From the NCBI GenBank assembly GCA_964389705.1, contig CAYMEO010000005.1, positions 1-51,217 of the forward strand: a DNA stretch of 51,217 nucleotides, given 5' to 3'. Below are positions 20,308 to 38,864 of this stretch, piece by piece. A program made the translations under genes and the position numbers. The stretch comes from an uncultured Spirochaetia bacterium. Lineage in GTDB: Bacteria; Desulfobacterota_D; UBA1144; Nemesobacterales; CSP1-2. How positions within the stretch are numbered: position 1 is the first letter of the stretch; each line of letters starts with the position of its first letter. A model generated the notes under the pieces. That model searched no databases. It was not told where the DNA came from and saw nothing but the letters and a program-made list of their open reading frames with translations.

Positions 20308-21510
20308 TCATCCTTCGATCCCGTGACGACCCTTAACGAAAAGGTAGGCTTCTAGCAATTTATCAATAGAATTTTTCCAAGAGTACTTCTCAATACCGAT
20401 TGCTTTTAGTTTCATAGCCAGGTCATGTCTTAATTTATCATCATCGAGCAACTTAATAATACAATCCCTTAGCGAGACAGGATCATTTGGTCGAGCATAG
20501 ATTCCCAAATTACCGAGGATCTCCCGATTTACTGGATAGTCAAAAACAACACTGGGAAGACCACTAGCAATATAATTATAAAGTTTGATATTGGCTTCAC
20601 CACTCAAATCTAAGAGTTTTGGAGACACCGCAATTATTCCAAGGGCCAGGTAATTATATATCTCCCAATAGGAAACCCTTCCCGTAAAAGTTATATACTG
20701 GGAAATATTTAAATCCTCTGAAATTTTTTTATAGTATTCTACATCAGGATATCCCATAATGAGAAAATGCACATCGTCTCTTTTCTCCACTATATATTTA
20801 ATGGCCTTTAACAAAAGATTCATACCCTGATACTCAGTAAGTAGACCCAGGTAGAGGATTATTTTTTTACTGTCCGGTATATTTAATCTCCTCCTTAATG
20901 ACTCGGTTTCATCTGATATATTTGGATGCGGTAAATCAGCAGCATCAGGAACGACGAAAATCGATTCCTTTTTTATTCCAGAGTTCTTATGAAGGCGATT
21001 GGACATAAAATTAGAATTTACTACAAATGCATCAGCGGCTTTATAAGATAGTCTCTCCAAAGTCAATGCCACTTTATTTATCACTTTATGAAGGAATGGA
21101 TATTCCTTCATAAATTTATGAGCCCTTACTTCACCCGTAAATTCACCTTGGACGTCAAAAACCATAGGAATTCTAAACAGCAAGCTACAGATTTTTCCGA
21201 TCAAAGCACCCTCATTTAGATGTGCATGAATGACATCCGGCTTAGTCTGATAAGTTACAAATATGGATTTTAGTAAGAGTAGAAAGTCCAGATATATCTT
21301 GTGAATTGAGGGTCCGGCTGAGGTCTTTTTATACCAAGGAATATTAATAATGCGTCTAATATCAATTCCGGGGATATCCTTGTCCAGATGATACGTACAA
21401 ATAGTAACACTATTCCCTAAGGATATTAAATTTTTTGCCTCTTCGTATATTCTCACATGGCAACCCCTATCTGAGAAAAATGGAGTCGGGGCTATCATCA
21501 AGATCTTCAC
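20308..21510 (-). CDS. Glycosyltransferase family 4
   Basis: MKILMIAPTPF, LYLGLLTEYQG, EANIKLYNYIASGLPSVVFD; GTG start. Confidence 0.9.
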   Translation of the reverse strand: MKILMIAPTPFFSDRGCHVRIYEEAKNLISLGNSVTICTYHLDKDIPGIDIRRIINIPWYKKTSAGPSIHKIYLDFLLLLKSIFVTYQTKPDVIHAHLNEGALIGKICSLLFRIPMVFDVQGEFTGEVRAHKFMKEYPFLHKVINKVALTLERLSYKAADAFVVNSNFMSNRLHKNSGIKKESIFVVPDAADLPHPNISDETESLRRRLNIPDSKKIILYLGLLTEYQGMNLLLKAIKYIVEKRDDVHFLIMGYPDVEYYKKISEDLNISQYITFTGRVSYWEIYNYLALGIIAVSPKLLDLSGEANIKLYNYIASGLPSVVFDYPVNREILGNLGIYARPNDPVSLRDCIIKLLDDDKLRHDLAMKLKAIGIEKYSWKNSIDKLLEAYLFVKGRHGIEG

Positions 21511-21665
21511 GGAAATTATCCCTATTTAACAATTTAAATTTAGAATTATAATCCCCTTATCAAAGAGTCTCTATTTGGTTTTGAATTTTGCTTTGTTTTA
21601 ATATTAACTGTCACCGATATTTTTCTTTCTATAGAGAAAACTCAGCGAATCTTAACACCCCTAAA

Positions 21666-22679
21666 TTATACGGCTAGATTCATAGATATAATTTTCTGAT
21701 ATACCGACTCTATTGATTCTACCATTATTTCGGGACTAAACATCTCTACCCAAATTGGATGATCCCTTAAATCAATTTTTCTTTCTACCTTACCGCTTCT
21801 TAAAGAGGCAACTATACTGGCTGCCAATTGTTTACTGTCTCCTCTTTCAACCAGGAGCCCATTGATACCATGGCTAATAATCTCGGGAATACCACCTACA
21901 TTAGTAGCTACTATTGGCAATCCAGCGGCCATAGCCTCCAGCAACACTATGCCGCTAGCCTCTATCTCCGAAGGAAGAACAAATACATTAGCTCGATAAA
22001 AGTACTCTCTTACATCATTTGGGGATAGTCCATTTATAAATTCTATAGGTAGATTTCTACTCAAGAATCTGGCTACAAGTCTGGAATGTAGGTACTCCGG
22101 TCCAATAACTAATACCCTAGCACTAGGAATCTCTTCTAATACGAGTGGCAGGGCTTTTATTAATGTAAAAAGACCCTTTCTAAAATAGTCCCGACCAACA
22201 AATAATATGAGGTTCTCGTCTCTCTGATCAGAAGTGTAATTATAACCATCTGTATCTATAGCCAATCTAATAACAAATGTGTTGGGGTGACTAATTTTTT
22301 TTCTCATATATTCCGAGTGGATTATAATTGCCTGAGCCTTCTTTAGGATTTTTGAGTATTTCCACTTACGCACCTTCTGAAGGATATATCTCAACGGCAG
22401 GTCCGGGCACGGAAATGGATAAAATTGAGTCCAGTAATAATCGTGGATGTCAACTATCACCGGGCATCTCAGTTTTTGCAAATACTTTAAATTTGCATGC
22501 TTGAGATCGAGTACGTGGGCAATATCCCAATCTCCCTCGTAATCTTCCGGCAACGAGAAGATTTTAACAGTATGCCGCTTATTCATTTCATTCAGCACTA
22601 TATCACGGTATGTACCTGAGCCAGTCAATAATCGACCCATTTGGGTAAAATAGAGGATCCTCATGTCGTTTTCCAACAT
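21666..22679 (-). CDS. Glycosyltransferase family 4
   Basis: LFVGRDYFRKG and FVLPSEIEASGIVLLEAMAAGLPIVATNVGG (EX7E). The true start may be 22664. Confidence 0.9.
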   Translation of the reverse strand: MLENDMRILYFTQMGRLLTGSGTYRDIVLNEMNKRHTVKIFSLPEDYEGDWDIAHVLDLKHANLKYLQKLRCPVIVDIHDYYWTQFYPFPCPDLPLRYILQKVRKWKYSKILKKAQAIIIHSEYMRKKISHPNTFVIRLAIDTDGYNYTSDQRDENLILFVGRDYFRKGLFTLIKALPLVLEEIPSARVLVIGPEYLHSRLVARFLSRNLPIEFINGLSPNDVREYFYRANVFVLPSEIEASGIVLLEAMAAGLPIVATNVGGIPEIISHGINGLLVERGDSKQLAASIVASLRSGKVERKIDLRDHPIWVEMFSPEIMVESIESVYQKIISMNLAV

Positions 22680-22696
22680 TGGTAGTTATATAGCAG

Positions 22697-23719
22697 TCAG
22701 CTACTTTTCTCTTGCAAAATGCGGTCCAATCGGCAGCGGCGCTTATAAATAAACCAAGGAGAATAGTAGGGTCCCCAAAATCTATCCATCTCTGCATAAG
22801 TGATTCTCCGATTGCTCTGGATTCTACTTCGCTCTCTTAGGACCCGCGGTAGCTGTTTTAAGGCACTGATCTTGGCTTTAAACCTTGAAATGTCCTTCTT
22901 TTTTAATAGATAGTATCCATCTGCAAGTATATCATAAGCAACAATAAGAGGAGCATAATAGAGTATGTACCTAATAGGCCAGTCTTTCAGAATGGTCAAA
23001 ATTTTATTCCTCTCAAGCAGAAAGATCTTTCTACTCGATTCATGGCCCAGCGACCATGCATGGTGATGAAATACAACAGCCCTAGGAACGTATAAACACC
23101 GCCAACCGGCCAGTCTCGCCCGGAATGCTAAATCAACCTCTTCGTAATAGATGAAATAATCCTCATCAAATAGCCCTACGTCCTCAAAGACCTCCCTTTT
23201 ATAAAATGCTGCGCCGCCAGAAGGGCAGAACACCTCTTCAATCTGCTCGGAACCCCCTTCATCTATGGTAAGCCCCATCCTACCATATACATTGCCATCT
23301 TTACTAATCTCCACACCCGCACAATCTATGATGTCTCGACTAGAACTAAATAATACCTTGGAAGCCAGCATCCCTATTCCTTCATCCCTCGATTTAAACC
23401 TCATAAGCTCTTCCAACCATTTACTATCGGGAACCATATCATCGTCAAGCGTAACGATGTATCTTCCTCTGGCCTCTTTAATCCCCTGATTTCTCCCGCC
23501 AGCGCAACCCTTGTTTTCTTCGTTTTCTATGATCCTAACAGTGGGGTGTCTATTTTTAATCTCGTTTACATGGCTTTGATCCAATCCATTGGTGACCAGA
23601 ATAATCTCGAATTCCCTAAAGCTCTGCCGATATATGCCCTGTAAGCATCTGTCCAAGATTTTTCCTTGATCTCCCCATCTCGATGTCAGGATAATTATAG
23701 AAACTAGGTTTTGAGTCAT
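22697..23719 (-). CDS. Glycosyltransferase family 2 (rhamnosyltransferase-like subfamily)
   Basis: VSIII, LDDD (DxD), YYEEVDLAFRARLAGW. Start uncertain: 23719 matches the domain start; in-frame ATGs at 23845 and 23890 overlap the upstream gene. Confidence 0.85.
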   Translation of the reverse strand: MTQNLVSIIILTSRWGDQGKILDRCLQGIYRQSFREFEIILVTNGLDQSHVNEIKNRHPTVRIIENEENKGCAGGRNQGIKEARGRYIVTLDDDMVPDSKWLEELMRFKSRDEGIGMLASKVLFSSSRDIIDCAGVEISKDGNVYGRMGLTIDEGGSEQIEEVFCPSGGAAFYKREVFEDVGLFDEDYFIYYEEVDLAFRARLAGWRCLYVPRAVVFHHHAWSLGHESSRKIFLLERNKILTILKDWPIRYILYYAPLIVAYDILADGYYLLKKKDISRFKAKISALKQLPRVLRERSRIQSNRRITYAEMDRFWGPYYSPWFIYKRRCRLDRILQEKSS

Positions 23720-23831
23720 TGACTTAATAAAAGGAACGTAGTAGAAATCTGCTCTCGAAGTCGGATACCGCTCAGTAAATGTACCTACGAGTTGACTCTT
23801 GCCGTTGACAATGCGAAAATGGGAACTAATT

Positions 23832-25457
23832 TCATTTTGTGTCATAGGCCCCCACATCATACGCCGACCCTTGGGGTATAGTATCACCATAGAAGTCTGT
23901 CTGGCCCGGGTTTATACCAAATTGCGTTAAATTCAAGCCCGCATCAATGAGCGGAGATGTACTCCGCAATTGATAGGCAGTAAGTGTAGGAAGAAGGGTA
24001 GCATCACCAAAGGTCCCTCCTCCGCCTAGACTTACAAGCTCAGGGTCTACGTTAAATCCGGTAATTACATTTCCTATTTTCTCCTGGCCGGTAGCATTGC
24101 GCCAAGAACCTAAGTCGGTGTAAGTAGTAGAGCCCCATTTAATGGCAAAGCTATCGTCACTTGACCAGTAATCATTACCCTGAAACAAAATGCCGCTTTG
24201 TCCAGAAGGAACGTTTACCAATTGTAGGCCCCCTGTGGTTATAAAAATATTGTTGCGCACATGGACATTCACGGTAGGACCAGAGATGGATATTGCTTTG
24301 GGGCTGCCGCTAGGCGCCGGGCTTATATAGACTGTATTGTTATAAATCTCACTATTCTTAATTCCGCTTCCGTCATTCCACAACTGGATTCCTCCAAAGC
24401 CGTTCTTGCGTCCGTCGTCCTGACTAATGTTGTAACGGATGGTATTCCCATAAAAGGGCCGAGCACCGCTGAACTGTGCCAGTAAAAAACCAGCCCCGTC
24501 GTTGTCATGTGAATAATTATACTGCATGATTGAATTGGTCACCCCCCCGTCAAGGTCAAAACCCCCTCCATCGGCACTAGAGTCAGTAGCGTTGTTGTAA
24601 GACTCATTGTGCTGAATGATAATACTGTTTGAGTTCCAGGCCCAAATACCTATAGGGCCACCCACCGCTGTATTAAGCCATCCATTGTTATAGGCCACAG
24701 ACCATTCAATAATTCCCCCATTAACGTCTGAGATCACAATGCCATTCCCCGAATTATATGGTAATCCCGGTATTCCAGGATTATTATAGGCCTCGACGTA
24801 GCCTATATAGACGTCTTCATGAGCATAATCGGTTGCGGTTGAACTTAGAGAAGAATCGCCCCAAATCGAGATACCGGCATCTGCGTTATCATGAGCCGAT
24901 GTATTAGTAATACTAACGTCTCGAAAACCACTTTTACCATTATCCCCTACAATAGAAATACCAACCCCTCCAAATTCGCTGACCTCAACGCTGTCTATAT
25001 GTACATAATCCAATTTTATATCTCCCGGAAGATCATTGTAAAAAATTATTCCGTCGTCTGTATTGACCTCCCGACCAGCCCCAACGAAATTTATATTCTT
25101 TAGCATGTATCCAGCAGTATTGTAGGCGAAGAACCCGCTACCAGTACCTGCCTGAATGGTTGCACGACCCCGGCCATAAGAAGAGATAGTAATAGGAAGG
25201 GCACTTGTCCCCATTGAAGCAGAATCAAAGTAAAGATTACCGGTAAATGTGTTTCCGCCTTTAAATAAGATATTATCCCCCGCGGCAAATTTGGCCCTGT
25301 TTACTCGATTTATGGTTCTCCAGGCTTGCCTTCGCGAGGTTCCAGAATTACTGTCATCCCCCGAAGGACTGACATAGTAGGTAGTAGCATAAGCGTATGT
25401 GATTTCCCCCAAAAATATCGCTAAGGAAATTATAATCCCCCCTATCTTAAACCTCAT
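23832..25457 (-). CDS. Secreted right-handed parallel beta-helix protein, probable polysaccharide lyase/hydrolase
   Basis: Signal peptide (..ITYAYA/TTYYVSPSGDDSNSG), Asn/Gly-rich PbH1-like repeats (DGGGFDLDGG), C-terminal IDAG...D..G..IPQGSAYDVGAYD tail; SD AGGAGGTG at 25472-25465. Confidence 0.8.
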   Translation of the reverse strand: MRFKIGGIIISLAIFLGEITYAYATTYYVSPSGDDSNSGTSRRQAWRTINRVNRAKFAAGDNILFKGGNTFTGNLYFDSASMGTSALPITISSYGRGRATIQAGTGSGFFAYNTAGYMLKNINFVGAGREVNTDDGIIFYNDLPGDIKLDYVHIDSVEVSEFGGVGISIVGDNGKSGFRDVSITNTSAHDNADAGISIWGDSSLSSTATDYAHEDVYIGYVEAYNNPGIPGLPYNSGNGIVISDVNGGIIEWSVAYNNGWLNTAVGGPIGIWAWNSNSIIIQHNESYNNATDSSADGGGFDLDGGVTNSIMQYNYSHDNDGAGFLLAQFSGARPFYGNTIRYNISQDDGRKNGFGGIQLWNDGSGIKNSEIYNNTVYISPAPSGSPKAISISGPTVNVHVRNNIFITTGGLQLVNVPSGQSGILFQGNDYWSSDDSFAIKWGSTTYTDLGSWRNATGQEKIGNVITGFNVDPELVSLGGGGTFGDATLLPTLTAYQLRSTSPLIDAGLNLTQFGINPGQTDFYGDTIPQGSAYDVGAYDTK

Positions 25458-25561
25458 AATGGGTCACCTCCTACTAGTTTTTGTTACTTCCAGATGGAGG
25501 CAAACCATTAGCTGAGATGATTAGAAGCTAAGGGGATAAGATGAGAAAGCTCCTTGCTCTA

Positions 25562-25653
25562 CTTCGGTAACCCAGCCGCCATAGATTGCCCGCGCAATCT
25601 TTAGGCCGAAGGTTTTGCGCCCCATCCTTTTGGATGGTTTGCCTTTGTCGGTT
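25562..25653 (-). ncRNA. c-di-GMP-I (GEMM-I) riboswitch aptamer
   Basis: Minus strand reads ACCGACAAAGGCAAACCAUCC-AAAA-GGAUGGGGCGCAAAACCUUCGGCCUAAAGAUUGC-GCGG-GCAAUCUAUGGCGGCUGGGUUACCGAAG. It aligns position by position to the GEMM-I consensus (GGCAAACC, CGCAAA, CCUAA/UAUGG receptor, GGGUUACCGA). Confidence 0.9.
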
Positions 25654-25812
25654 AGAGACAACCATCTTGTAATTGTGTAATTCAGATACCTTTATGCACA
25701 AGGCTTTTCTATTTATTACACAAGAATAATCTATTGTCAAATAAGCTTTCTAAATTTTGGATATATTCTGAATCATTGCCATTCTCTTAGTGTAATGCAC
25801 TATTGGATTAAT

Positions 25813-26739
25813 CTATTTTTGACTAATCCGGGGTTCGAATACCCTATATTTGAAAGACAGCGGCTTCATTAACCCCTTCCATATCCCGTGGATAACAAAA
25901 AGATAGCAATAGCCCTTGAGTAATCTATGCTTATTTCTGGTCAGGGCTGCCAACACGATATTTCCTATCCCTCGAATGAGGAGCCTCTCAATAATCAGTC
26001 CGAGTACATACACATCTCCATAACGCAGGTGTTTAATCAATAACGCACCCGCACCGATATTGTAATCCTTCTCTACACGCAAGGCTTCCACATCTCCTCT
26101 CCACAGTCTGTGGTATATAATAGCCTCAGGTGTATAGACGACTTTCAGTCCACAACGAAGCAGTCTATAGGCCATGTCAGCATCATCACAATTCCTCAAT
26201 TCGGCCCCCGGTCCCAGCAATTCATCAAAATATCCTATCTCTTTAAAAACCCCTCTTCTGAGAGCCATATTATTGCCAGACTGAAACTCCCAGGGATTGA
26301 CTAATCTTTTGTATTCCTGACGATTGTCTTTCAAGCGAATAGCCAGCATCTTTCTGGTTCGGGCTCCATCAAAAACAGGGGGCACCTTCCCATAAACAGC
26401 CATAGTATCTCTATCCCTTTTGAACTCCCGAATAATGGCTTCAGCCCAATCACCGGTTACAATACAGTCATCATCGGTAAAGGCTATTATATCACCAGTA
26501 GCGGTCTTAATACCCACATTTCTTGCCTTAGATAGACCCCTGGTTTCTGTGGGTATGTGCTTGAGGTTCCTTATAACAGGTAATAACTCCTCTATAACAG
26601 ATATGGTAGCGGCAATATTGGAGCTCTGATCTACAACTATGACCTCATGGAATTCGAGTCTGCTTTTAGAGAGGGACTGAAGACAGGTCCTTAAGAGATC
26701 CGCTCTATCTCTGGTGCAGATTATTAAAGAAATTCTCAT
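25813..26739 (-). CDS. Glycosyltransferase family 2
   Basis: ISLIICTRDR, VVDQS, AFTDDDC, DDADMAYRL. Confidence 0.9.
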   Translation of the reverse strand: MRISLIICTRDRADLLRTCLQSLSKSRLEFHEVIVVDQSSNIAATISVIEELLPVIRNLKHIPTETRGLSKARNVGIKTATGDIIAFTDDDCIVTGDWAEAIIREFKRDRDTMAVYGKVPPVFDGARTRKMLAIRLKDNRQEYKRLVNPWEFQSGNNMALRRGVFKEIGYFDELLGPGAELRNCDDADMAYRLLRCGLKVVYTPEAIIYHRLWRGDVEALRVEKDYNIGAGALLIKHLRYGDVYVLGLIIERLLIRGIGNIVLAALTRNKHRLLKGYCYLFVIHGIWKGLMKPLSFKYRVFEPRISQK

Positions 26740-26803
26740 AGCTAATCACCTAAATACAAAAATATATCGTTGCCATATCATCCAGTCTCGACATCTCCAC
26801 ACC

Positions 26804-28117
26804 TTACGAGCCGATACCCATAATGTCCCTTACTTTAGACCCATCCGTGTAAGACCTATTTTTTAAGTAAAACTTAATTCCCGACACATAGCCCGAAATT
26901 TCTACCAGTAGCGTACTTCGCCTTTGCCCAAAGCCTTTTAATGTCCCAGTTAAAAAGGATTTAACATAGAAGGCGGGTAAAGCAATGAACAGACGTAGCA
27001 GATTACCAAAGTGTCTGTACTTTTCAAACTGAATTAAAAGTGCGGCTACATGCCCCCGCATATAATAGTACACCTGCCGCTCTAAGCTATCTGTGTCTCG
27101 ACGATGGTTGTGATAAACTACAGCAGCCGGTTCATAGACACAAGTCCAGCCCCCGGCAATCATCCGATACCATAATTCAGAATCTCCACTACATCCGGCG
27201 GCTCCTACATCCAACCGCTCGTCAAACCCCCCCACCAGCTCAAAAACCGTGCGCCGAAATGCCATATTGGCTCCGGCACCAATGCGCCAAACGGGCACAC
27301 CCCAAGTCCTGTGATCCTCAAAGAAACGACTGTCGAAGGTCAAAGCTCTATATCCTCGATTAAAGCCCCAGTATTTTTCAAAAATAAACTGGGCTTCCGT
27401 TTCCAATTCCATTGGCAGAACGAGCCCGGTAACAGCCATCACCTTCGGATCATTAAAGCCTTGTAATAATCGGGTGATCCAATTGGGATGAACCATTACA
27501 TCATCATCTATAAAGGCGACGATGTCACCTGTGCTCTTGCGAATACCTGTATTTCTGGCTACATCCAAACCGGGGCGCGGTTCCAATATATATCTGATTC
27601 TCGGCATCTTCGCGACTAATTGGCGTGTGGAGTCTGATCTCGGGGCGTTATCAACAACCAATATCTCTTCGGGATATTGAGATAGATCTTGAAGCGATCT
27701 TAGGCACTTTGCCAGTTGTTCTGATCTATCCCGTGTGCATATAATAACCGAAACAGATTCATCCACAGGTCTTGACAAATACTCATGCACTTGGGAGAGA
27801 GATTGGTCTAACATCATCAGACCTCGTTGGCCCGAGTTCATAATTCTTGAATTTTGATATAATTCGGCTGAATGGCCCTTCAAGCCTTGCTTCAATAGAC
27901 GATCGCAGACTACCGGTGTAATGGTCCGAAGTGCTAGATTTGCAAGCTGCTCAGAAGTTATAGGCAATTGAGCAGATGGGATTTCCCGATGGCCAAGCGG
28001 AATGCTATACCACCAAAAGACAATATATAGCCCCTGATAGCCCTCGTCAATTTGCAGCGAAGGCAAGCCCTTACCTAAATCGATATTCAGAATTTTCCAA
28101 GGCTTAAAGGCATTCAT
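26804..28117 (-). CDS. Glycosyltransferase family 2 with N-terminal accessory module
   Basis: VSVIICTRDR, VVDNAP, AFIDDDV, GDSELWYR, preceded by a ~115-aa non-GT N-terminus. Confidence 0.9.
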   Translation of the reverse strand: MNAFKPWKILNIDLGKGLPSLQIDEGYQGLYIVFWWYSIPLGHREIPSAQLPITSEQLANLALRTITPVVCDRLLKQGLKGHSAELYQNSRIMNSGQRGLMMLDQSLSQVHEYLSRPVDESVSVIICTRDRSEQLAKCLRSLQDLSQYPEEILVVDNAPRSDSTRQLVAKMPRIRYILEPRPGLDVARNTGIRKSTGDIVAFIDDDVMVHPNWITRLLQGFNDPKVMAVTGLVLPMELETEAQFIFEKYWGFNRGYRALTFDSRFFEDHRTWGVPVWRIGAGANMAFRRTVFELVGGFDERLDVGAAGCSGDSELWYRMIAGGWTCVYEPAAVVYHNHRRDTDSLERQVYYYMRGHVAALLIQFEKYRHFGNLLRLFIALPAFYVKSFLTGTLKGFGQRRSTLLVEISGYVSGIKFYLKNRSYTDGSKVRDIMGIGS

Positions 28118-28127
28118 AGAGATTGAC

Positions 28128-29045
28128 TTATCTCCAAATATATTCCAGTCGCTTCTTGATTCGGCTAAGTCGGTATAAAATGGGGTGGTTATATGGCCAA
28201 AATCCTTTTTGAAGAGCCTGCCAGACCTCCTCGTCCCGAATTCCCTGTTTGGATAAATACTCCGTCATCCAGTTTAAAAAATTCAAGTGCTCCGGGTTTG
28301 GCCGTGAGAGTTGGAGTTGCCCTGTTCTCTCAGCAACAGAGCAGCATGAATCCGGGTGCTGACGATACCTATCCCAACATTCACTGGATACATACACCGG
28401 CACCCTGAGATACACCTTAGCAAAAAATGCCCTGTCCTCAAACAACCCCCTAAAGATATCTTCAAATCCACCCACCTCATCAAACACCCTGCGCCTTATT
28501 AGGACACTACAAGTGGCAGGCGCATTCGCTCTGTTTTGCAATAAAAGCGTGAGCAATTGGGGCGGTTGGTAAAGCGTATTGGGCAGAACCCCGATTTCCC
28601 GCACCGAGTCACTTTGGCTATCTTCCGAATTACCTGTCCAGCTGTACCAATATTGAGTAGATCCAAAAACCATGCCGGCCACAGGATAAGAATCTAGAAT
28701 CACTGCCTGCTGCTCCAGTTTGTGTGGCAGCCAAACGTCATCGGCATCTAAGAAGGCGATGTATTCCCCCCTGGCATTACTGATGCCCAAATTACGCGAA
28801 GCGCTCATGCCCTGATTTTGATGACCATCATGTTTAAGATAACGAACCTTCTTGGGATATTGCCTAGCATACCCTAGCGCAATTTCAGTGCTACCGTCGG
28901 TTGAACCATCATCTACAAGCAAAAGTTCCCACTCGTCATAGGTCTGGGCAAAGACGCTCTCGATAGCCTCCTGTATAAACTTCCCGGCGTTTAAAAATAT
29001 AGTGATGACTGAGACCAGCGGCTGTCTAATAATCGTATCAACCAT
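28128..29045 (-). CDS. Glycosyltransferase family 2 (paralogue 3 of 3)
   Basis: PLVSVITIFLN...VDDGSTD...FLDADDVW. Start set at 29045 (SD AGGTGG; ATGGTTGA overlap with the deacetylase stop) rather than the track's 29231. Confidence 0.88.
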   Translation of the reverse strand: MVDTIIRQPLVSVITIFLNAGKFIQEAIESVFAQTYDEWELLLVDDGSTDGSTEIALGYARQYPKKVRYLKHDGHQNQGMSASRNLGISNARGEYIAFLDADDVWLPHKLEQQAVILDSYPVAGMVFGSTQYWYSWTGNSEDSQSDSVREIGVLPNTLYQPPQLLTLLLQNRANAPATCSVLIRRRVFDEVGGFEDIFRGLFEDRAFFAKVYLRVPVYVSSECWDRYRQHPDSCCSVAERTGQLQLSRPNPEHLNFLNWMTEYLSKQGIRDEEVWQALQKGFWPYNHPILYRLSRIKKRLEYIWR

Positions 29046-30072: not shown

Positions 30073-30096
30073 ATTATCTCCACAGTTGTAATGTTG

Positions 30097-30136: not shown

Positions 30137-30314
30137 AGGAGATTCCCAGGCAACCTCAAAATAGTTTGAGGTTAGCGCCTGACGGTTGTGCCCCAACCGA
30201 TTGTTTCATATTCTATTAAGTTTAGCTTTCTGTATCTCCGAGTTAAAACTCTGGAGTTTTAGAAAACAGGATTCTGATAAGATGGTGTTTGGGTACCTTT
30301 CATAAAAGGGAACC

Positions 30315-32003: not shown

Positions 32004-33792
32004 AAAACCCCTTCATATACCTTCTGTTCTTAGGATCGGTCTTAGCTCTGTACTCTCTAATTGTAATTGCTAGTTTCAGACACAACCGCTTTAGAGGTGA
32101 ACGTATTCCAATTGAAGAAATAATTGTTTGTCCGGCCATGGCGAGTTTCCAACGGAGCCTCCATCCCACATCAGACCTCAGAATCTCGATCCTTGGAATC
32201 TGATAAGGATTTTGAAAGGGCATCACGCAACCGGCTGTTACTGTAAACGCAGCCTGTATGCCAGCTTCCTGTACAGCTTTTTCCACCCTCTCGTCACTTT
32301 CACCGTGGGGATAGGCAAAAAGCCGTGGTCGCGGTAGCCCAATTGTTTCTAGATCTGTTAGCGACCCCCCCACTTCTTCGGCCAATTCTTCAGTCGGGAC
32401 CTGGGTGAGAGGGCGATGTGTCTTAGAATGAGAGCCAATCTCAACTCCCCCGGCTGATAATTCCTTCAGGCCGTTGGCATCGAGCAATCGAATTTGCTTA
32501 GCCCCAATCATTTTATCCCAGTCATTCATTTCACCCAAACGTCCACTTACGGCAAAAGCGACCGCCGGTATGCCCTGCTTCTTAAGTATAGGCAACGCGA
32601 CCTTTAAGATGTCCTCAAAACAGTCATCGAATGTTAGCAATAATGGTTTTCGCGGCAGACCACCATTTCCATTTAAAAAACGCAAAAACTCATCAGTTGT
32701 TACAAATCTATAGCCGGACTTTTGAAGTGTATCTATCTGCCGGAGAAACAACCCTTCTGGTACCCCGTATTGCTCGAGTATAGAACATCCCGAGAGATCC
32801 GATATCGAGTGATAGGCTAAGACCCTTAGGGGCTGAGGTTTCGGTATCCCTCCGGCCTCACGCACTCCACGCCAGTATTCCAAGTCCCGCCCCCGGAAAA
32901 ACAACCTCGTTGTGATAGCGTTTTGAATCCCCATATTTACTAGAGCGAGCAAGAGCCAAGATGTCAGACGCCACAAGACCCGCTCGATTAAGGACCCGGC
33001 AGGGTGGGCTGCAAAGATATCATTGATAAGATCGGGGTGCTTCCGTACAAGAGCTATATCTGCACGCCCCGCCTGTCGCCACTGGCGCAGGTAATCAATC
33101 GGGGTAACTACGTACTTCTGCCAGCTAATGGCATTTGGGTTGAAGACGATACGATATCCTTTGAGTTTGAGACGGTAGCAAAAATCGAGGTCCTCATCCC
33201 CAAACGAGCCATTGCGGTTGAAATTTGTGTCGAACCCACCGAGCTTATGAAAGACCTCAAATGATAAGGAAGCCTGTCCGGTAATCATATCATGAATGGT
33301 CGGGGTTGCATTTGGAGACGACAGCCGCTTAACCCTTTTCTCAGCCCAAATGCCGACCCCGACGCTCAGGAAGTTTGAAGGCGATTCGGGATGCAATGGA
33401 ATGTGTCCAAGAACAATATCAGCTCCCTCTCGGTGAGACCGGTTGTGCTCTGCCAAGAGACGTGGATGGGCTTCCATGTCGTCGTCCAGAAAGAGTAAAA
33501 TTTCCCCATGAGCAACATCGGCACCACGGTTCAGAGCCGTAGCCCTACCCTTGTTTTGTTGTTCAATCACCGTCATGGGAAAGGGGACATTGATTTCTCG
33601 GAGGGCTTGGGCTGTGCCGTCTGTTGAGCCGTCCACCACCACAATGACCTCGAAGTGGCCGTCAAATTCCTGTCTTACCAAAGAACGCACCGATGCCAAT
33701 ACAAGCTCTCGCCTTTGGTAGGTTGGAATAATTACACTAAATCTCACAGATTTGTCTTTACTAATATCCCGCATCAATCTGAGATCATTCAT
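31966..33792 (-). CDS. GT2 - CE4 polysaccharide deacetylase fusion protein
   Basis: N-terminal GT2 (SVIIPTYQR, VDGSTD, FLDDDM, DEDLDF); C-terminal CE4 (LAYHSI, LTFDDC, GSHSKTH, FAYPHG). Confidence 0.9.
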   Translation of the reverse strand: MNDLRLMRDISKDKSVRFSVIIPTYQRRELVLASVRSLVRQEFDGHFEVIVVVDGSTDGTAQALREINVPFPMTVIEQQNKGRATALNRGADVAHGEILLFLDDDMEAHPRLLAEHNRSHREGADIVLGHIPLHPESPSNFLSVGVGIWAEKRVKRLSSPNATPTIHDMITGQASLSFEVFHKLGGFDTNFNRNGSFGDEDLDFCYRLKLKGYRIVFNPNAISWQKYVVTPIDYLRQWRQAGRADIALVRKHPDLINDIFAAHPAGSLIERVLWRLTSWLLLALVNMGIQNAITTRLFFRGRDLEYWRGVREAGGIPKPQPLRVLAYHSISDLSGCSILEQYGVPEGLFLRQIDTLQKSGYRFVTTDEFLRFLNGNGGLPRKPLLLTFDDCFEDILKVALPILKKQGIPAVAFAVSGRLGEMNDWDKMIGAKQIRLLDANGLKELSAGGVEIGSHSKTHRPLTQVPTEELAEEVGGSLTDLETIGLPRPRLFAYPHGESDERVEKAVQEAGIQAAFTVTAGCVMPFQNPYQIPRIEILRSDVGWRLRWKLAMAGQTIISSIGIRSPLKRLCLKLAITIREYRAKTDPKNRRYMKGFYASAVKIQKKNV

Positions 33793-33811
33793 AACCCTGG
33801 AATTTCATTAG

Positions 33812-34576
33812 TTACCTTCTTTGATCATAAATTAACAACGGCTTAACGGCCCTCACCGTGATTAAGACCTCATAAGCAGGGTCATAGAAATCGAGCTCTT
33901 CCTGACAAAATTCTCTAGCTGCAAGCCCCTGCAGAAACGCGATTGCCGACAGCACATTCCCATAGGCTTCTACCTTAACATTATCTGCTGGGAAAAATTC
34001 CTCAAACAGCCGTCGCGATGATAGGCTCGTGAAACTCCAACACTGATAATCACCCCACTTGTCGCTTGCAATCTGGCTGATGCCTGAAAATGTGGCTAGC
34101 ACCACCCCACCTGGTTTCAAAATACGGTAGATTGTCCCGATAGCAGCTTTCACATCATAGATAAATTGGAGCGTCTGCGTCAGTATTAAACAGTCGAATG
34201 TATCCGATGGTATGTGGTAGGCTTTTGTCAGGTCACCGACGAATGTGGCAATTGGATTCCCTTCAGAAATATGAAGTACATCTCTGGTATTTACCCTATC
34301 TCCGCCAAATCGCTTGGTATATGAATCGTCTCCAATCTCTAGCACACGTCCTCTAATATCATCGGCATGCCGGGCGAGAAAATTCTCGATGTAGTAGCGG
34401 TCAATAGGCAGACCGCGATCAAATCCAAACTCACGGCTGATTGGTGTTACCCGTCGTAGGCTACCAAAATCCACTGTTCCAACCGGATAACGATACGCCT
34501 GCCATTGACTTCTTAACCAGCGCCATTGATTTTCCAACCAGCGCTGTGTACGTGTTGCTAATTTGTGGTACCCCAT
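33812..34576 (-). CDS. Class I SAM-dependent methyltransferase-like protein
   Basis: FGFDRGLPIDRYYIE, VLEIGD, FDCLILTQTL, RILKPGGVVL. Confidence 0.8.
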   Translation of the reverse strand: MGYHKLATRTQRWLENQWRWLRSQWQAYRYPVGTVDFGSLRRVTPISREFGFDRGLPIDRYYIENFLARHADDIRGRVLEIGDDSYTKRFGGDRVNTRDVLHISEGNPIATFVGDLTKAYHIPSDTFDCLILTQTLQFIYDVKAAIGTIYRILKPGGVVLATFSGISQIASDKWGDYQCWSFTSLSSRRLFEEFFPADNVKVEAYGNVLSAIAFLQGLAAREFCQEELDFYDPAYEVLITVRAVKPLLIYDQRR

Positions 34577-34623
34577 CAGTCAAGATAGTCTTTATACACA
34601 GAATAATTTCGCGATACCAACAT

Positions 34624-35562
34624 CTAAGACTCCGTGAGCAATGTCCTCACTGCTCGCTTCACTGGTTTTTTTATTTGTTCAACGAGATTACCGGGGAGTT
34701 TTGACAACCTGTACAGGTGCGGATGCTGGTATGGCCAGAAAGCCCTTCGCAGTGCCTTCCAGATATTGATGTCTCTAATCTCTTGTTCAGTCAGATATGC
34801 CTCCAGCCATTTTAGAAAAAACAGTCTAATCTCATCATGGAATTGACTCGTCCTCGCCATACAGGAGTATGGATGTATTCTATATCGGTCCCAACACTCG
34901 CCAGCTGCAAACACAGGCGCACTGAGATACACCTTGATCAAAAACGCTTGATCTTCGTATAATTGGTACATACCCCGAAAGTCTTCTTCAAATCCTCCTA
35001 TATTTTCCACAGTCTCACGACGCAACAGTATATTAGAGGGGCAAGGAGCGGTACCTTCTCCTAATGGGTGGCAGAGAATGGCCAACTTTGGCGGATTGAA
35101 CACGGTATTGGTCTGAACACCAAGTTCTGGTATAAAGTCTCGTTTAGCATCTTCGGGTTTACCTGTCCAGCTATTCCAATATTCACTGGCTCCATAGACC
35201 ATAGCGACTTCGGGATGTGAACCTATGATTTCCACTTGTCGCTCCAGTTTATGTGATAACCAGACATCATCGGCGTCTAAAATAGCGATATACTCACCTT
35301 TAGAATAGCGAATACCTAGATTGCGTGAAACGCATACCCCGTGATTCTGATGCCCCTCGTGTTCGAGATAGTGAATCTTTCCGGGATACAGTTCAGCATA
35401 CCGTCGGGCAATTGATGTGCTCCCATCATCTGATCCGTCATCTACTAGGAGTAGTTCCCAGTATTCGTAAGTCTGTGCAAGCACACTCTCAATGGTTTCT
35501 TTTATGAACCTTTCGGCATTCAAGAAGCTAACAATAACAGAGACAAGGGGTTTTCTATTCAT
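34624..35562 (-). CDS. Glycosyltransferase family 2 (paralogue 2 of 3)
   Basis: PLVSVIVSFLN...VDDGSDD...ILDADDVW...YEDQAF. Confidence 0.9.
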   Translation of the reverse strand: MNRKPLVSVIVSFLNAERFIKETIESVLAQTYEYWELLLVDDGSDDGSTSIARRYAELYPGKIHYLEHEGHQNHGVCVSRNLGIRYSKGEYIAILDADDVWLSHKLERQVEIIGSHPEVAMVYGASEYWNSWTGKPEDAKRDFIPELGVQTNTVFNPPKLAILCHPLGEGTAPCPSNILLRRETVENIGGFEEDFRGMYQLYEDQAFLIKVYLSAPVFAAGECWDRYRIHPYSCMARTSQFHDEIRLFFLKWLEAYLTEQEIRDINIWKALRRAFWPYQHPHLYRLSKLPGNLVEQIKKPVKRAVRTLLTES

Positions 35563-35674
35563 ATCTATAAGAAGAGAATTAAATTGAAAAGCCCATTAAA
35601 GCTACCGGATTATAGAACAATTATATTCCGGAGCCATCTAGCAAACATACACAATCTTTAGATCTTAAGTACCC

Positions 35675-36661
35675 TTATTTAAATGCCTGCCATACCGTTC
35701 GTAGCCAGCACCTAAGAGAAATGGGTAACGTCCGCTTCGCTATAAAAATCATTAGCCCGTGCCACTGGATCGGATTGAAAAAATGGCGGTAAATTTCTAA
35801 CAAACGATTTAGAGTCGGATAACGATAGGGCCATTTGGCCTTTCGAAGAGATTTCCATACCTCAGGATCCTTTACCCCCTGTTTTGATAAATACTCCTCT
35901 ACCCAGTTCAAATAAAATAAGCGATCAGCGTAAAATCGTCCCTCTTCCCATGAAATGTCAGTGTAAGAATCCCAATGACTCCTATATCTATACCAACACT
36001 CACTAGACACAAACACTGCCGAAGTAAGGCATATCTTGACGAGAACAACGGCATCCTCATACATACCACGAAAAACCTCTTCATATCCGCCTACACTTTC
36101 TAATACATTACGTCGTACCATTATACCGCCAGGTATGAAAAATTCGTCCCGTAGGAATAGGTTAAGCAACGCCGGTGGCTTAACTAGCGAGTTACTGTAC
36201 GGATGCACACCATTACGATTTACACCCATGAGATGGTCACGCTTATTATACTCAGGATTACCCAGCCAACTGTACCATACCTGAAGAGGTCCATAAACCA
36301 TGGCGGCTTCAGGTTGTGATTCCAGAATTGCCACCTGTTGTTCTAATTTGTGGGGTAACCAGACATCATCACCATCCAAGAAGGATATGTACTCGCCCTT
36401 GGCATTATGAAAACCCAAATTGCGTGAAGCACTCATGCCGAGATTTCGATGGCCATCATGCTCCAGATAACGCACTTTTTCAGGGTATTTCTCTGCATAA
36501 CGTCTAGCAATTGCAGTGCTACTGTCTGTTGAGCCGTCATCCACAAGCAAAAGTTCCCAATTGTCATAAGTCTGTGCGAATACACTCTCTATGGCTTCCT
36601 GTATGAACTTCTCCTCATTCAGAAAAATAATAATTGCAGATACTAACGGCTTGATGCTCAT
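35675..36661 (-). CDS. Glycosyltransferase family 2 (paralogue 1 of 3)
   Basis: PLVSAIIIFLN...VDDGSTD...FLDGDDVW...YEDAVV. Confidence 0.9.
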   Translation of the reverse strand: MSIKPLVSAIIIFLNEEKFIQEAIESVFAQTYDNWELLLVDDGSTDSSTAIARRYAEKYPEKVRYLEHDGHRNLGMSASRNLGFHNAKGEYISFLDGDDVWLPHKLEQQVAILESQPEAAMVYGPLQVWYSWLGNPEYNKRDHLMGVNRNGVHPYSNSLVKPPALLNLFLRDEFFIPGGIMVRRNVLESVGGYEEVFRGMYEDAVVLVKICLTSAVFVSSECWYRYRSHWDSYTDISWEEGRFYADRLFYLNWVEEYLSKQGVKDPEVWKSLRKAKWPYRYPTLNRLLEIYRHFFNPIQWHGLMIFIAKRTLPISLRCWLRTVWQAFK

Positions 36662-36708
36662 CTCGTCTCACTAGAACTAAAATGCCACTTGGGACTCGGC
36701 CTCTATAG

Positions 36709-38028
36709 TTAAAGATCGCCGACTTTGAATTCATTTAAGCGTGATTGGGTAGTCCATTTTAACATTGGTCTCACAATACCCCCCATATCTCCGGCATAAT
36801 CACCGCGTGCTGAATCTCCATCAAAATTGTCGATAACCTGAAAAGCAACTGCATCGCATTCATCAAATTGAGGGATAACAGGGTCAATCGTATCGAGACC
36901 AGCATGGACAAAAAACATTCCCTCAGAGAGTAGATTGCCGGGAATCCATACTGTGCTCACATATAAACCTTTCGGACGAGGTCGCCGCCGCCAAGTCGGG
37001 TCGAGATCGTGAGATACAAAGACAAGCACACCTTCTTCATTGTAAAAGGCAAAATGCGGCATAAGCGCATAACCAGGCTTGAGAACTTCATATTCCATCT
37101 CAACTCTGAGGGATTGCCTGATATCAACTGCGTCAATTATATGCCCCTCCTCTGACCTCACCCGTACAGCATGTAAACGAACGATTTCGCCTTGGGGCGA
37201 CTTATCACGGTCGGGCCATATTCGCTCGGCAGTCGTACTGATTCCTGAACTCAAGTACAAGCTGACAACTCGATGAGATGGTCCGTCTTCTAAGATTCTG
37301 CCCTCTTTAATGAGGATTGCTCTTTCACAAAGACGAGTAATAGCAGCCATACTGTGTGATACAAACAACACCGTCCGCCCTTCCTTAGCCACGTCACCCA
37401 TTTTTCCCAGGCACTTCTTCTGAAACGCGGCATCCCCTACTGCCAAGACTTCATCCACAATCAGAATCTCCGGCTCTAGGTGAGCCGCTACAGCAAAGGC
37501 CAGGCGTACGTACATGCCGCTAGAATAGTGTTTTACCGGTGTATCCAGGAATCTCTCAACCTCAGAGAAGGCTACGATCTCATCGAACCTGCGGTCAATC
37601 TCTGCCTTCTTCATACCGAGTACGGCGCCACTCAGATATATGTTTTCCTTTCCTGTTAGCTCAGAGTGGAAACCGATGCCGACTTCAAGGAGTGAACCTA
37701 CCCTGCCATAAATGTCGGCGTAACCCTCTGTTGGCTCGGTGATACGGGCGAGGATTTTGAGTAATGTGCTCTTACCAGCGCCGTTAGATCCAATGATGCC
37801 GACAACCTCACCACGCTTAACCTCGAATGAGACGTCTTTTAATGCCCAGATGATGCCATTGGGCTGCTCATTGCCGATTGCTGATTGCCCATTTACGAAT
37901 TGCGAAAGCCATCGGAAAGGGGTATACACCGCCTCGGATAATGCGTCGCGCAAGGCATTGTAGCGCTTGGGCTGTCCGATGCGGTATTGCTTACCCAGAT
38001 TTTCAGCACGAATAGCAATGTTGCCCAT
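36709..38028 (-). CDS. wzt: Polysaccharide ABC exporter ATP-binding subunit with C-terminal Wzt-C domain
   Basis: GSNGAGKS, YSSGMYVRLAF, IVDEVLAVGD, VSH, then a ~170-aa beta-rich C-terminal domain. Start set at 38028 (MGNIAIRAENLGK), since the track's 38220 overlaps wzm. Confidence 0.92.
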   Translation of the reverse strand: MGNIAIRAENLGKQYRIGQPKRYNALRDALSEAVYTPFRWLSQFVNGQSAIGNEQPNGIIWALKDVSFEVKRGEVVGIIGSNGAGKSTLLKILARITEPTEGYADIYGRVGSLLEVGIGFHSELTGKENIYLSGAVLGMKKAEIDRRFDEIVAFSEVERFLDTPVKHYSSGMYVRLAFAVAAHLEPEILIVDEVLAVGDAAFQKKCLGKMGDVAKEGRTVLFVSHSMAAITRLCERAILIKEGRILEDGPSHRVVSLYLSSGISTTAERIWPDRDKSPQGEIVRLHAVRVRSEEGHIIDAVDIRQSLRVEMEYEVLKPGYALMPHFAFYNEEGVLVFVSHDLDPTWRRRPRPKGLYVSTVWIPGNLLSEGMFFVHAGLDTIDPVIPQFDECDAVAFQVIDNFDGDSARGDYAGDMGGIVRPMLKWTTQSRLNEFKVGDL

Positions 38029-38033
38029 CGCCC

Positions 38034-38864
38034 TTACAGTATATCCGCAAATGTTCTCTCCATACGCCGAAAGTACAGAAGGCCCCCAACAAGGAGTACA
38101 GTGACTGCCAGTACCGAAACAGCCATTGGCATCCCTATCCCTCCGCCTTTGCCCAACAAGGCCCAGCGGAACCCTTCCACCACCCCAGCCATAGGGTTTA
38201 ACCCGTATAAAATACGCCATGCCTCAGGCACCAGGCTGCTGGGGTAGGCAACGGGTGTTACGAAGAGCCAGAACTGTGTCAGAAAAGGTATCGTGTAGTG
38301 CACGTCGCGGTACTGCACATTTAGGGCTGACAGCCATAAGCCCACAGCCAGAGCCGTAGCAATAGCAAACAGTATGATAAATGGCAGCGCCAGAGCAGCC
38401 GTTGTTGGAACAACGCCGTAGTAGAACATCATACCAAGCAAAACCAAGAATGATATACCGAAATCGACTAACCCAGCCAGTACTGCCGATATGGGAATGA
38501 CCAGGCGCGGGAAATAAACCTTTGTTATAAGTCCCTGGTTCGACACCAGACTGTTTCCAGATGTAGTTAATGCATTGGTAAAGAGCTGCCACGGGAGAAG
38601 CGCACAGTATGCAAAAATCGGATACGGAATTCCATCGGATGGTACCTTAGCCAACTTTCCAAAGAAGATGCTGAATACAACCATTGTCATAAAAGGCTGC
38701 AGAATTGCCCATGTAACACCGAGTACTGTTTGTTTGTAGCGCACCTTCATATCGCGCCAGACTAGGAAATATAGGAGCTCACGGTATTCCCACAGGTCTT
38801 TGAGCCTGAGTGATACCCAACCACGCGATGGGCGAATAGTCAAATGAGGCACTGTCTCAAGCAC
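38034..38864 (-). CDS. wzm: Polysaccharide ABC-2 exporter permease
   Basis: RDMKVRYKQTVLG, LITKVYFPR, TPVAYP, LNPMAGVVEGFR. Confidence 0.92.
   Translation of the reverse strand: MLETVPHLTIRPSRGWVSLRLKDLWEYRELLYFLVWRDMKVRYKQTVLGVTWAILQPFMTMVVFSIFFGKLAKVPSDGIPYPIFAYCALLPWQLFTNALTTSGNSLVSNQGLITKVYFPRLVIPISAVLAGLVDFGISFLVLLGMMFYYGVVPTTAALALPFIILFAIATALAVGLWLSALNVQYRDVHYTIPFLTQFWLFVTPVAYPSSLVPEAWRILYGLNPMAGVVEGFRWALLGKGGGIGMPMAVSVLAVTVLLVGGLLYFRRMERTFADIL

Follow-up and report, generated by a model that had tools for sequence, protein, structure and literature searches.

In the contig CAYMEO010000005.1 of an uncultured bacterium of the Dadabacteria (51,217 nucleotides; this whole stretch of DNA is referred to here as the window) we identified a gene island on the minus strand, at positions 20245-39239 (18,995 bp), which probably specifies an ATP-binding cassette (ABC)-transporter-dependent surface or extracellular heteroglycan, together with enzymes that tailor it and a secreted glycanase gated by cyclic di-GMP (c-di-GMP). 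This reading combines sequence comparison with structure prediction. All 15 open reading frames (ORFs) within 20308-38864 lie on the minus strand and form one co-oriented block. The components listed for this block in a preliminary description, namely the transporter pair Wzm/Wzt, glycosyltransferases, a methyltransferase, CE4 de-N-acetylase domains, a riboswitch and a beta-helix protein, were all confirmed by Pfam, Rfam and fold comparisons. The counts given there hold for the two GT4 enzymes, the single methyltransferase and the two intact CE4 domains; the seven GT2 domains become eight, as Pfam finds GT2 domains in eight proteins (one fused to CE4), and the total is ten soluble glycosyltransferases. 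The absence from the block of Wzx, Wzy, a multi-pass synthase, a WecA/WbaP-type initiating transferase and nucleotide-sugar enzymes, also stated earlier, was borne out by Pfam and hydrophobicity analysis. Each glycosyltransferase has at most one hydrophobic segment, so that a synthase is excluded. No protein of the cluster reached an equivalog cut-off in NCBIfam.

The island is absent from one site and present at another in a related genome

The closest genome is that of Candidatus Dadabacteria ERB_12_1, a metagenome-assembled genome (MAG), whose phosphoglycerate kinase shares 89% identity with its counterpart in the window; the next four named matches, two of them from Dadabacteria MAGs, reach 68-71%. 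The ERB_12_1 contig PSLL01000001.1 is collinear with window positions 39240-47740 (87% nucleotide identity) and, past a 54-bp spacer, resumes at window position 20244 and continues down to 17461 (77% nucleotide identity). Positions 39240 and 20244 are thus joined by 54 bp in that genome, and the whole of 20245-39239 is missing there. A second copy of the island, 92% identical, was found on a different ERB_12_1 contig, PSLL01000010.1, matching the window from 20332 to 38876 with 88-94% nucleotide identity. On one side this copy is accompanied by a luciferase-like gene, queA, a tRNA methyltransferase gene and argG, which are unrelated housekeeping genes, and on the other side by ORFs without a counterpart in the window. 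The borders of the block are therefore confirmed independently, by the extent of similarity to the second copy and by the empty site.

Judged from these alignments, the block is a discrete relocatable island that is more conserved than its flanks (88-94% nucleotide identity between the two copies, against 77-87% for the surrounding housekeeping DNA). The third-position GC content is 0.43-0.53 from wzm to the glycosyltransferase gene GT2c and 0.34-0.38 in GT4a and GT4b. Taken together, the identity gap and the GC shift suggest a mosaic origin, with exchange after the divergence of the two genomes. No repeats of 9 nt or longer, direct or inverted, are common to both island borders, and no integrase or transposase is encoded inside the island. 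In a more distant lineage (loci L081 and L082), a reduced Wzm/Wzt cluster lies beside the endonuclease-III-like and ferredoxin genes that flank the island in the window.

The same synteny bears on a second locus of the window, block A, which had been proposed to supply precursors to the island. This proposal found no support: in ERB_12_1 the flanks adjoin each other with no island between them, and the island is found on a different contig, so that it moves independently of block A. Block A was likewise rejected as a part of the island system.

The exporter is of the Wzm/Wzt type

Export by the ABC route, as proposed earlier, is upheld by the first two genes of the block. Wzm (38034-38864) is an ABC-2 permease (PF01061, ABC2_membrane, 66.5 bits) with at least four strongly hydrophobic segments. 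Wzt (36709-38028) comprises a nucleotide-binding domain (ABC_tran, 78.6 bits) and a C-terminal carbohydrate-binding domain (36712-37251); its true start is MGNIAIRAE, and its best solved relatives are the Aquifex Wzt structures 8dku and 7k2t (E = 2e-65). For the C-terminal domain the Pfam match to Wzt_C is below threshold (24.7 bits, cut-off 30.4), and a sequence search against the PDB returned no match even at E = 10; homologues of the protein carry PF14524. Using a predicted model of the C-terminal 180 residues, with a mean predicted local distance difference test (pLDDT) score of 88.4, we obtained as best matches 2r5o, 6o14/8dky and 5hno, which are the carbohydrate-binding domains of the Wzt proteins of E. 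coli O9a, Aquifex and O12. One Aquifex domain entry among these top matches has 3-O-methyl-mannose bound. On the evidence of the modelled fold, this is a real carbohydrate-binding domain and the pathway is of the cap-dependent subtype.

A secreted GH136-like hydrolase

The 541-residue beta-helix protein (23832-25457, minus strand) carries a Sec-type signal peptide (MRFKIGGIIISLAIFLGEITYAYA followed by TT, with cleavage between AYA and TT) and a C-terminal choice-of-anchor Q domain that scores above its cut-off. Pfam gave no match at 1e-3, and the protein was resolved only by sequence and profile searches of the PDB. A phmmer search against solved structures retrieved only GH136 lacto-N-biosidases (E = 7.8e-23 for BsaX), and a profile built from 50 sequences of the family led to the same enzymes (E = 3e-35). 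The AlphaFold model is a right-handed beta-helix (pLDDT 94.5) for which Foldseek again placed GH136 lacto-N-biosidases first (E = 4e-19, TM-scores 0.67-0.70). The acid/base and the nucleophile of ErLnb136 are D568 and D575, respectively (PMC7335108). These residues align in the phmmer comparison with D296 and D303 of the hydrolase, which are likewise seven residues apart and are invariant in the 50 homologues of the family alignment. It is thus very likely that the protein is a catalytically active, retaining glycosidase belonging to a GH136-related family, with D296 as predicted acid/base and D303 as predicted nucleophile, in keeping with the secreted glycanase proposed in the preliminary description.

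We considered and rejected an equivalence with LnbX. The score against the LnbX equivalog model NF047897 is 80.4 bits for a cut-off of 2,500, the identity to these enzymes is 16-20%, and neither an LnbY chaperone gene nor a fused helical GH136_I domain, one of which GH136 enzymes need for activity, is found in the island, as judged from the architecture, in which the mature protein starts directly at the beta-helix.

The family has more than 5,000 relatives in the database, distributed over many phyla. In about 10 of 79 genomic loci carrying a hydrolase homologue, genes for Wzm/Wzt lie within 10 kb, and these loci include five from Pontibacter and three from Acidobacteria. Four of the five Pontibacter loci hold homologues in the arrangement wzm-wzt-GT2d-GT2-methyltransferase-CE4-GT2b, and the fifth (L043) has a partial set. 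In Nostoc NIES-3756 the homologue lies inside a cluster with Wzm, Wzt (with Wzt_C), a methyltransferase and GT2 genes. Among the Dadabacteria-type contigs, the riboswitch and the hydrolase gene either follow the glycosyltransferase gene GT2e (window, L002 and L085) or diverge from wzm (L081). Sequence comparison thus indicates that the association of the hydrolase with Wzm/Wzt recurs in independent lineages without being obligatory, which is good, not conclusive, evidence that it is the island's own glycanase. The earlier claim of a secreted glycanase behind a c-di-GMP-I riboswitch is upheld; this glycanase keeps an intact catalytic pair and is encoded beside Wzm/Wzt clusters in several phyla.

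In Pontibacter diazotrophicus (L004, 9995-15987) the homologue has 1,149 residues and bears PA14, PKD and type IX secretion sorting domains, and its gene is followed by that of a second beta-helix protein of the type IX secretion kind. Both beta-helix genes diverge from a wzm-wzt-GT2-GT2-methyltransferase-CE4-GT2-GT2 operon. This organism is culturable.

A c-di-GMP-I riboswitch heads the hydrolase unit

The 355-nt gap between GT2e and the hydrolase gene contains a c-di-GMP-I riboswitch (RF01051, 25563-25653, minus strand) that scores 71.1 bits for a gathering threshold of 35 (E = 4.7e-12). The match covers the full model (positions 1-87 of 87) and is the sole Rfam element of the whole window. 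Including the closing helix P1, in which CUCUA (25657-25653) pairs with UAGAG (25561-25557), the aptamer spans 25557-25657. It is kept together with the hydrolase in L002, L081, L082 and L085 (66-72 bits). P1 covaries, being CUCUA/UAGAG in the window, CCCUA/UAGGG in L085 and CUCUA/UAGGG, with a G-U pair, in L002; four distinct sequences underlie this comparison. The ligand-contact positions agree with the c-di-GMP consensus: the unpaired G before GCAAA, the A in CGCAAA and the C in the 3' ACCGA tail, which we take to be G20, A47 and C92 of Vc2. A change from G to A at the first of these positions marks variants selective for cyclic GMP-AMP. A sigma-70-like promoter is predicted at 25713-25740 (TTGACA, 16 nt, TAATAA). 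It aligns with TTGACA-16-TACAAT in L081 and TTGATC-17-TATATT in L085, and lies about 60-90 nt upstream in each orthologue.

The expression platform is a hairpin at 25459-25508 in which CCUCC (25500-25496) pairs with the Shine-Dalgarno sequence AGGAGG (25472-25467). This hairpin appears in every predicted fold and its sequence is nearly invariant in five orthologues; no terminator was found downstream of it. The anti-Shine-Dalgarno strand GGUUUGCC (25506-25499) is also complementary to GGCAAACC (25643-25636) of the aptamer. When transcripts are folded only up to a point before the Shine-Dalgarno sequence, the anti-Shine-Dalgarno strand is paired with the aptamer core in the ligand-free minimum-energy structure of each of the four distinct orthologues. 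On the basis of these folds, we favour, with some reserve, a kinetic translational switch that c-di-GMP turns OFF: binding would lock the aptamer, the anti-Shine-Dalgarno strand would be freed, and the ribosome-binding site would become sequestered. Two observations limit this reading. Thermodynamic folding of the full leader leaves the Shine-Dalgarno sequence sequestered both with P1 enforced and without it, and forcing it open costs 8-12 kcal/mol, so that equilibrium folding cannot tell ON from OFF; moreover, L081 and L082 have two mismatches in the proposed anti-sequestor pairing.

The gene for GT2f shares 29-59 nt with the 3' end of the hydrolase gene, and a gap of 17 nt separates GT2f from GT4a; therefore the switch probably governs glycosyltransferases as well. 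From this gene arrangement, riboswitch and hydrolase probably head a sub-operon with GT2f, GT4a and GT4b. The preliminary description had assumed control by c-di-GMP at several levels. This part does not stand, as no GGDEF, EAL, HD-GYP or PilZ domain was detected in the scanned ORFs of the window, and no c-di-GMP element other than the one riboswitch was found.

Using Rfam on 11 loci, and a motif scan over the hydrolase and methyltransferase loci fetched, we also surveyed the distribution of the riboswitch. It was found only in Dadabacteria-type contigs, and was rejected as a general feature of the hydrolase family or of the cassette described below. Within this survey it is a lineage-specific addition, since the conserved methyltransferase-CE4 cassette of 77 other genomes has no riboswitch; the earlier view of the switch as a property of the system as such had to be given up.

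In L085 the riboswitch-hydrolase unit is immediately followed by a gene for an IS605 OrfB-type transposase (6527-7593), which may hint at the way in which this unit moves.

A conserved methyltransferase and two cytoplasmic de-N-acetylases

The only methyltransferase of the island (33812-34576) is a class I S-adenosylmethionine (SAM)-dependent enzyme (Methyltransf_11, 33 bits). Among its weak best structural relatives are phosphoethanolamine N-methyltransferases, and its more than 7,700 database relatives bear generic names only. De-N-acetylase domains are present in a GT2-CE4 fusion (31966-33792; PF00535, 97 bits, and PF01522, 82 bits), where CE4 forms the C-terminal half, and in a stand-alone CE4 protein (29038-30072; PF01522, 82 bits). 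The best solved relatives of the latter are PplD (6dq3) and IcaB (4wcj), and the fusion is similar to IcaB and PgaB, below the cut-offs of NCBIfam. In both proteins the catalytic residues match H105, D167/D168 and H223/H227 of PplD, within the motifs LMYHSV, TFDDGY and HTITH of the stand-alone protein and LAYHSI, TFDDCF and HSKTH of the fusion. By sequence, both domains belong to the PplD/IcaB/PgaB subgroup and have an intact catalytic set. Tailoring of an amino-sugar-containing glycan by the CE4 enzymes and the methyltransferase, as envisaged earlier, is supported by these domains and their preserved catalytic residues. Neither CE4 protein has a signal peptide or a transmembrane segment; the lipid-linked chain must therefore be de-N-acetylated while it grows in the cytoplasm, ahead of export.

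Relatives of the methyltransferase with 56-74% identity across phyla were found in 77 other genomes, mostly of filamentous cyanobacteria, with Blastocatellia, Planctomycetes and others. A CE4 gene lies directly downstream of the methyltransferase gene in 63 of 72 other loci, and the stand-alone CE4 of the window, 45-60% identical to these methyltransferase-linked proteins, is their orthologue. A gene of the GT2a/b/c type directly precedes the methyltransferase gene in 40 of 71 loci and lies within 4 kb downstream in 32 of 62, and a Wzt gene is located within 10 kb in at least 29 of 77. Two genes, those for the GT2-CE4 fusion and for GT2long, separate the methyltransferase from its customary CE4 partner in the window. 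These four genes also occur, differently ordered, in an uncultured gammaproteobacterium (L116). The cassette of methyltransferase and CE4 is thus found in cyanobacteria, Acidobacteria, Planctomycetes and Pontibacter, is widespread without having a name, and usually lacks the riboswitch. Because of the pairing of the two genes, comparison of the loci suggests that both enzymes act on the same residue.

Proposed mechanism

In the pathway that we propose, the chain would grow in the cytoplasm on undecaprenyl phosphate, with priming by an enzyme whose gene lies elsewhere. N-acetylhexosamine (HexNAc) residues would be de-N-acetylated before export and then methylated, either as a chain-terminating cap or at the freed amine. 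The finished chain would be recognised by the carbohydrate-binding domain of Wzt, and flipping across the inner membrane would be the task of Wzm/Wzt. Once outside the cytoplasm, the island glycan would be cut at beta-HexNAc-type linkages by the GH136-like enzyme. Binding of c-di-GMP would set the amount of hydrolase and, through the gene overlap, also that of GT2f and probably of GT4a and GT4b. As the riboswitch sits on the hydrolase unit, c-di-GMP would remodel or release the glycan rather than switch its synthesis on.

Several observations weigh against an island-encoded glycan system of this kind. No priming transferase, WaaL ligase or outer-membrane export component is encoded anywhere in the window; the priming transferase and the ligase or outer-membrane exporter may be encoded elsewhere, as is usual for WecA. 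About 69 of the 79 hydrolase loci, together with the contexts in Methylolobus and Thiocapsa, do not adjoin Wzm/Wzt, and given such contexts the enzyme could act on foreign glycans. Finally, a Wzt C domain was detected in 4 of 51 methyltransferase-CE4 loci (about 28-31% identity). Co-conservation thus lends no support to the pair of methyltransferase and CE4 as the maker of a cap read by Wzt, and makes this role less likely.

Alternative explanations

In a different explanation, which we regard as unlikely, the locus would be an ordinary, horizontally exchanged lipopolysaccharide (LPS) O-antigen or capsule island, and the riboswitch-controlled enzyme an unrelated passenger, secreted to forage on glycans of the environment. 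Most hydrolase homologues do lie in non-glycan contexts, and in L083 and L084 a 70%-identical homologue is found beside lgt without a riboswitch. Wzm/Wzt with a binding domain and a methyltransferase is the classic O9a/O8-type O-antigen design, and an island that is relocatable and more conserved than its flanks resembles what is often seen for serotype loci. A passenger is, however, difficult to reconcile with a hydrolase gene that overlaps GT2f and heads a unit with three glycosyltransferases, with the two distinct arrangements in which this lineage places riboswitch and hydrolase next to the Wzm/Wzt cluster, and with the same hydrolase family adjoining Wzm/Wzt clusters in three other phyla.

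The tight linkage of methyltransferase and CE4 (63 of 72 loci), both of them cytoplasmic, invites comparison with nodulation factors. The product could then be a capped oligosaccharide or a protein or S-layer glycan, made by NodB/NodS-like deacetylation followed by N-methylation and exported by a NodIJ-like ABC-2 transporter. Similarity of Wzt to NodI (85-89 bits), a weak NodB match of CE4 and the phosphoethanolamine N-methyltransferases among the structural relatives of the methyltransferase point in this direction. Nevertheless the Nod matches are far below their cut-offs, a NodA-type acyltransferase and a NodC equivalog are absent, ten glycosyltransferases argue for a complex chain, and no oligosaccharyltransferase is encoded in the window; we consider a product of this kind distinctly improbable.

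Most doubtful is the biofilm-matrix polymer of the preliminary description, in which the logic of poly-N-acetylglucosamine (PNAG) and Pel was combined with ABC export, a feed from block A and multi-level c-di-GMP control, since its supporting features (CE4 domains most similar to IcaB and PgaB, a hydrolase with a c-di-GMP riboswitch, and GlmS and UDP-glucose dehydrogenase in block A) are set against CE4 domains without signal peptide or membrane anchor, the absence of a synthase, PilZ, GGDEF, EAL or porin from scans of the window, an island separable from block A, a homologous cassette without riboswitch in 77 other genomes and a predicted platform for which repression is likelier than activation.

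Comparison with known systems

The island is closest in design to the ABC-dependent O-antigen systems of E. coli O9a/O8 (WbdD-Wzt) and Aquifex aeolicus (WzmWzt; 8dku, 8dky), with which it shares Wzm, a Wzt with a binding domain of the same fold, soluble glycosyltransferases, a SAM-dependent methyltransferase in the operon and the absence of Wzx/Wzy. It differs from systems of the O9a/O8 type by two cytoplasmic CE4 enzymes, an internal c-di-GMP riboswitch and a separately controlled unit of a secreted glycoside hydrolase and three glycosyltransferases, and it lacks a WbdD-like kinase or coiled-coil ruler.

With respect to de-N-acetylation, PplD is a CE4 enzyme that de-N-acetylates GlcNAc of ABC-exported, undecaprenyl-linked streptococcal rhamnopolysaccharides; it is membrane-anchored with its catalytic domain outside the cell, and it works on the linkage unit once the glycan has been exported (PMC8807736). 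It is the best solved relative of the stand-alone CE4, with the catalytic residues kept, whereas the island enzymes have neither anchor nor signal peptide and must act before export. In PgaB, IcaB and PelA, as in PplD, the placement of de-N-acetylation differs from that of the island CE4s. Caulobacter HfsH and rhizobial NodB are known examples of CE4 enzymes that work in the cytoplasm, on a lipid-linked or oligosaccharide intermediate that is yet to be exported, and in the Nod pathway (NodB-NodS-NodIJ) deacetylation is followed by SAM-dependent N-methylation and ABC-2 export. The matches of island proteins to HfsH, NodB and NodI are weak and far below the family cut-offs; the Caulobacter holdfast uses Wzx/Wzy, and the island has no equivalent of NodA or NodC.

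The hydrolase shares with the GH136 enzymes LnbX, BsaX, TnX and ErLnb136 the beta-helix fold, an N-terminal YYVS-GDD-N-GT motif and the pair of aspartates seven residues apart; it differs from these lacto-N-biosidases in its low identity (16-20%), its environmental origin and its frequent location beside Wzm/Wzt clusters. GH136 has so far been studied for the use of human milk oligosaccharides by gut bacteria. A secreted glycanase encoded with the biosynthesis of its presumed substrate and linked to c-di-GMP is also seen with PslG, PelA, the C-terminal domain of PgaB, BcsZ and Vibrio RbmB, and the beta-helix lyase RbmB is among the weaker fold matches of the hydrolase (Foldseek rank 38). Those systems depend on a synthase or on Wzx/Wzy and employ c-di-GMP-binding proteins, whereas the island has Wzm/Wzt and a riboswitch as sole sensor. 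The analogy to PNAG and Pel proposed earlier was rejected in particular, because the deacetylases are not exported and there is no membrane-embedded synthase with a c-di-GMP receptor and no outer-membrane porin.

Searches of the literature and NCBIfam found no named or characterised homologous locus. The Synechocystis cluster slr0977/slr0982/slr1610, with Wzm/Wzt and a methyltransferase, affects exopolysaccharide and adherence, not O-antigen (PMC3769361); it is analogous only and is not a characterised homologous locus. The description of the system as undescribed therefore holds for the locus and not for its kind. ABC-dependent glycan assembly with a Wzt binding domain is already known, and there are precedents for a CE4 acting on an ABC-exported glycan (PplD) and for a glycanase encoded with biosynthesis (PslG, PelA, RbmB). 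What is new is the overall combination, the linkage of cytoplasmic deacetylases with a conserved methyltransferase, and a c-di-GMP riboswitch placed over a GH136-like enzyme and three glycosyltransferases.

The control of polysaccharides by c-di-GMP is so far understood mainly through protein receptors acting on synthase-dependent matrix polymers. If the proposed reading is true, the island would link c-di-GMP to an ABC-dependent glycan of the O-antigen type through an RNA switch on a hydrolase-glycosyltransferase unit. The analysis also points to two large uncharacterised families, the environmental GH136-like secreted enzymes and the methyltransferase-CE4 cassette common in filamentous cyanobacteria; culturable carriers of both families exist in Pontibacter and Nostoc, while the Dadabacteria are uncultured. 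We consider the riboswitch-hydrolase-glycosyltransferase unit and the widespread methyltransferase-CE4 cassette to be the most valuable leads. A bolder idea, which we put forward as speculative and rather unlikely, is that methyltransferase and CE4 are an unrecognised two-step module, by which HexNAc of an undecaprenyl-linked, ABC-exported glycan becomes a cationic amino sugar that is N-methylated or marked with methyl in another way, and that in Dadabacteria this module is carried on a mobile island, where the c-di-GMP riboswitch controls a dedicated GH136-like enzyme for trimming and three additional glycosyltransferases. Were it correct, a methyl-marked amino sugar would be a widespread signature of surface glycans without a characterised example, and a second messenger would rewrite the structure of a surface glycan after export rather than gate its synthesis.

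Glycosyltransferases and leader of the island

The glycosyltransferases of the island, all on the minus strand, comprise three paralogues, GT2a (35675-36661; PF00535, 121 bits), GT2b (34624-35562; 113 bits) and GT2c (28128-29231; 117 bits), of which GT2a is 52-56% identical to the other two. GT2b is of the type that usually precedes the methyltransferase in other genomes. In GT2c the domain begins at residue 74 of the ORF, and the true start is probably near 29045-29084. GT2long (30315-32003) has 562 residues and a PF00535 match (135 bits) confined to residues 17-145. Its C-terminal stretch of about 350 residues (30315-31350) has no Pfam or NCBIfam match and is not present in a 295-residue Pontibacter homologue; it might be a chain-length or scaffolding domain. 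GT2d (26804-28117; 94 bits) has an N-terminal extension of 120 residues, and its homologues in Pontibacter, Acidobacteria and cyanobacterial clusters are 43-66% identical. GT2e (25813-26739; 90 bits) is the last gene of the main operon, and its homologue in L085, 82% identical, lies directly upstream of riboswitch and hydrolase.

The three remaining enzymes are those of the hydrolase unit. GT2f (22697-23890; PF00535, 76 bits) is given in the gene call of the public contig a start 29 nt inside the hydrolase gene. GT4a (21666-22679; PF00534, 123 bits) and GT4b (20308-21510; PF00534, 81 bits, with Glyco_transf_4) follow, GT4b being the last gene of the island; the 155-nt gap before it contains promoter-like hexamers. 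At the other end, an AT-rich leader of 375 non-coding nucleotides upstream of wzm (38865-39239, minus strand) is presumed to be the promoter region of the main operon. It has no Rfam match and contains no RfaH-type ops element (GGCGGTAG).

Block A and other flanking genes

Block A (1932-14743, minus strand) is a separate locus for glycan or lipid modification. It carries a NusG paralogue (14213-14743), a LuxR-type response regulator (13406-14092) and a receiver-only regulator (12500-12937), and encodes GlmS, UDP-glucose dehydrogenase, an ArnT/PMT_2-like membrane transferase (7457-9088), two methyltransferases, a GT4 enzyme, a flavoprotein similar to glycerol-3-phosphate dehydrogenase and an NAD epimerase. 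Its gene content is reminiscent of a pathway for aminoarabinose-like or glycolipid decoration that has an antiterminator of its own.

An ABC transporter on the plus strand (17146-20244), composed of an ATPase with an AAA_assoc_C domain and a double BPD_transp_1 permease, abuts the insertion point of the island. With 0.50, its GC content exceeds that of the window (0.43), and it is only 77% identical to ERB_12_1 at the nucleotide level, against 87% for the other flank. Elsewhere in the window, a 353-residue ORF (47846-48907, minus strand) has no Pfam match. Next to the island, a gene for an 89-residue 4Fe-4S ferredoxin (40122-40388, minus strand) falls below the 100-residue limit of the ORF list; the 116-residue ORF opposite it (40080-40430) is probably spurious. 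The ferredoxin is 94% identical to the one encoded beside the riboswitch-hydrolase unit of L082.

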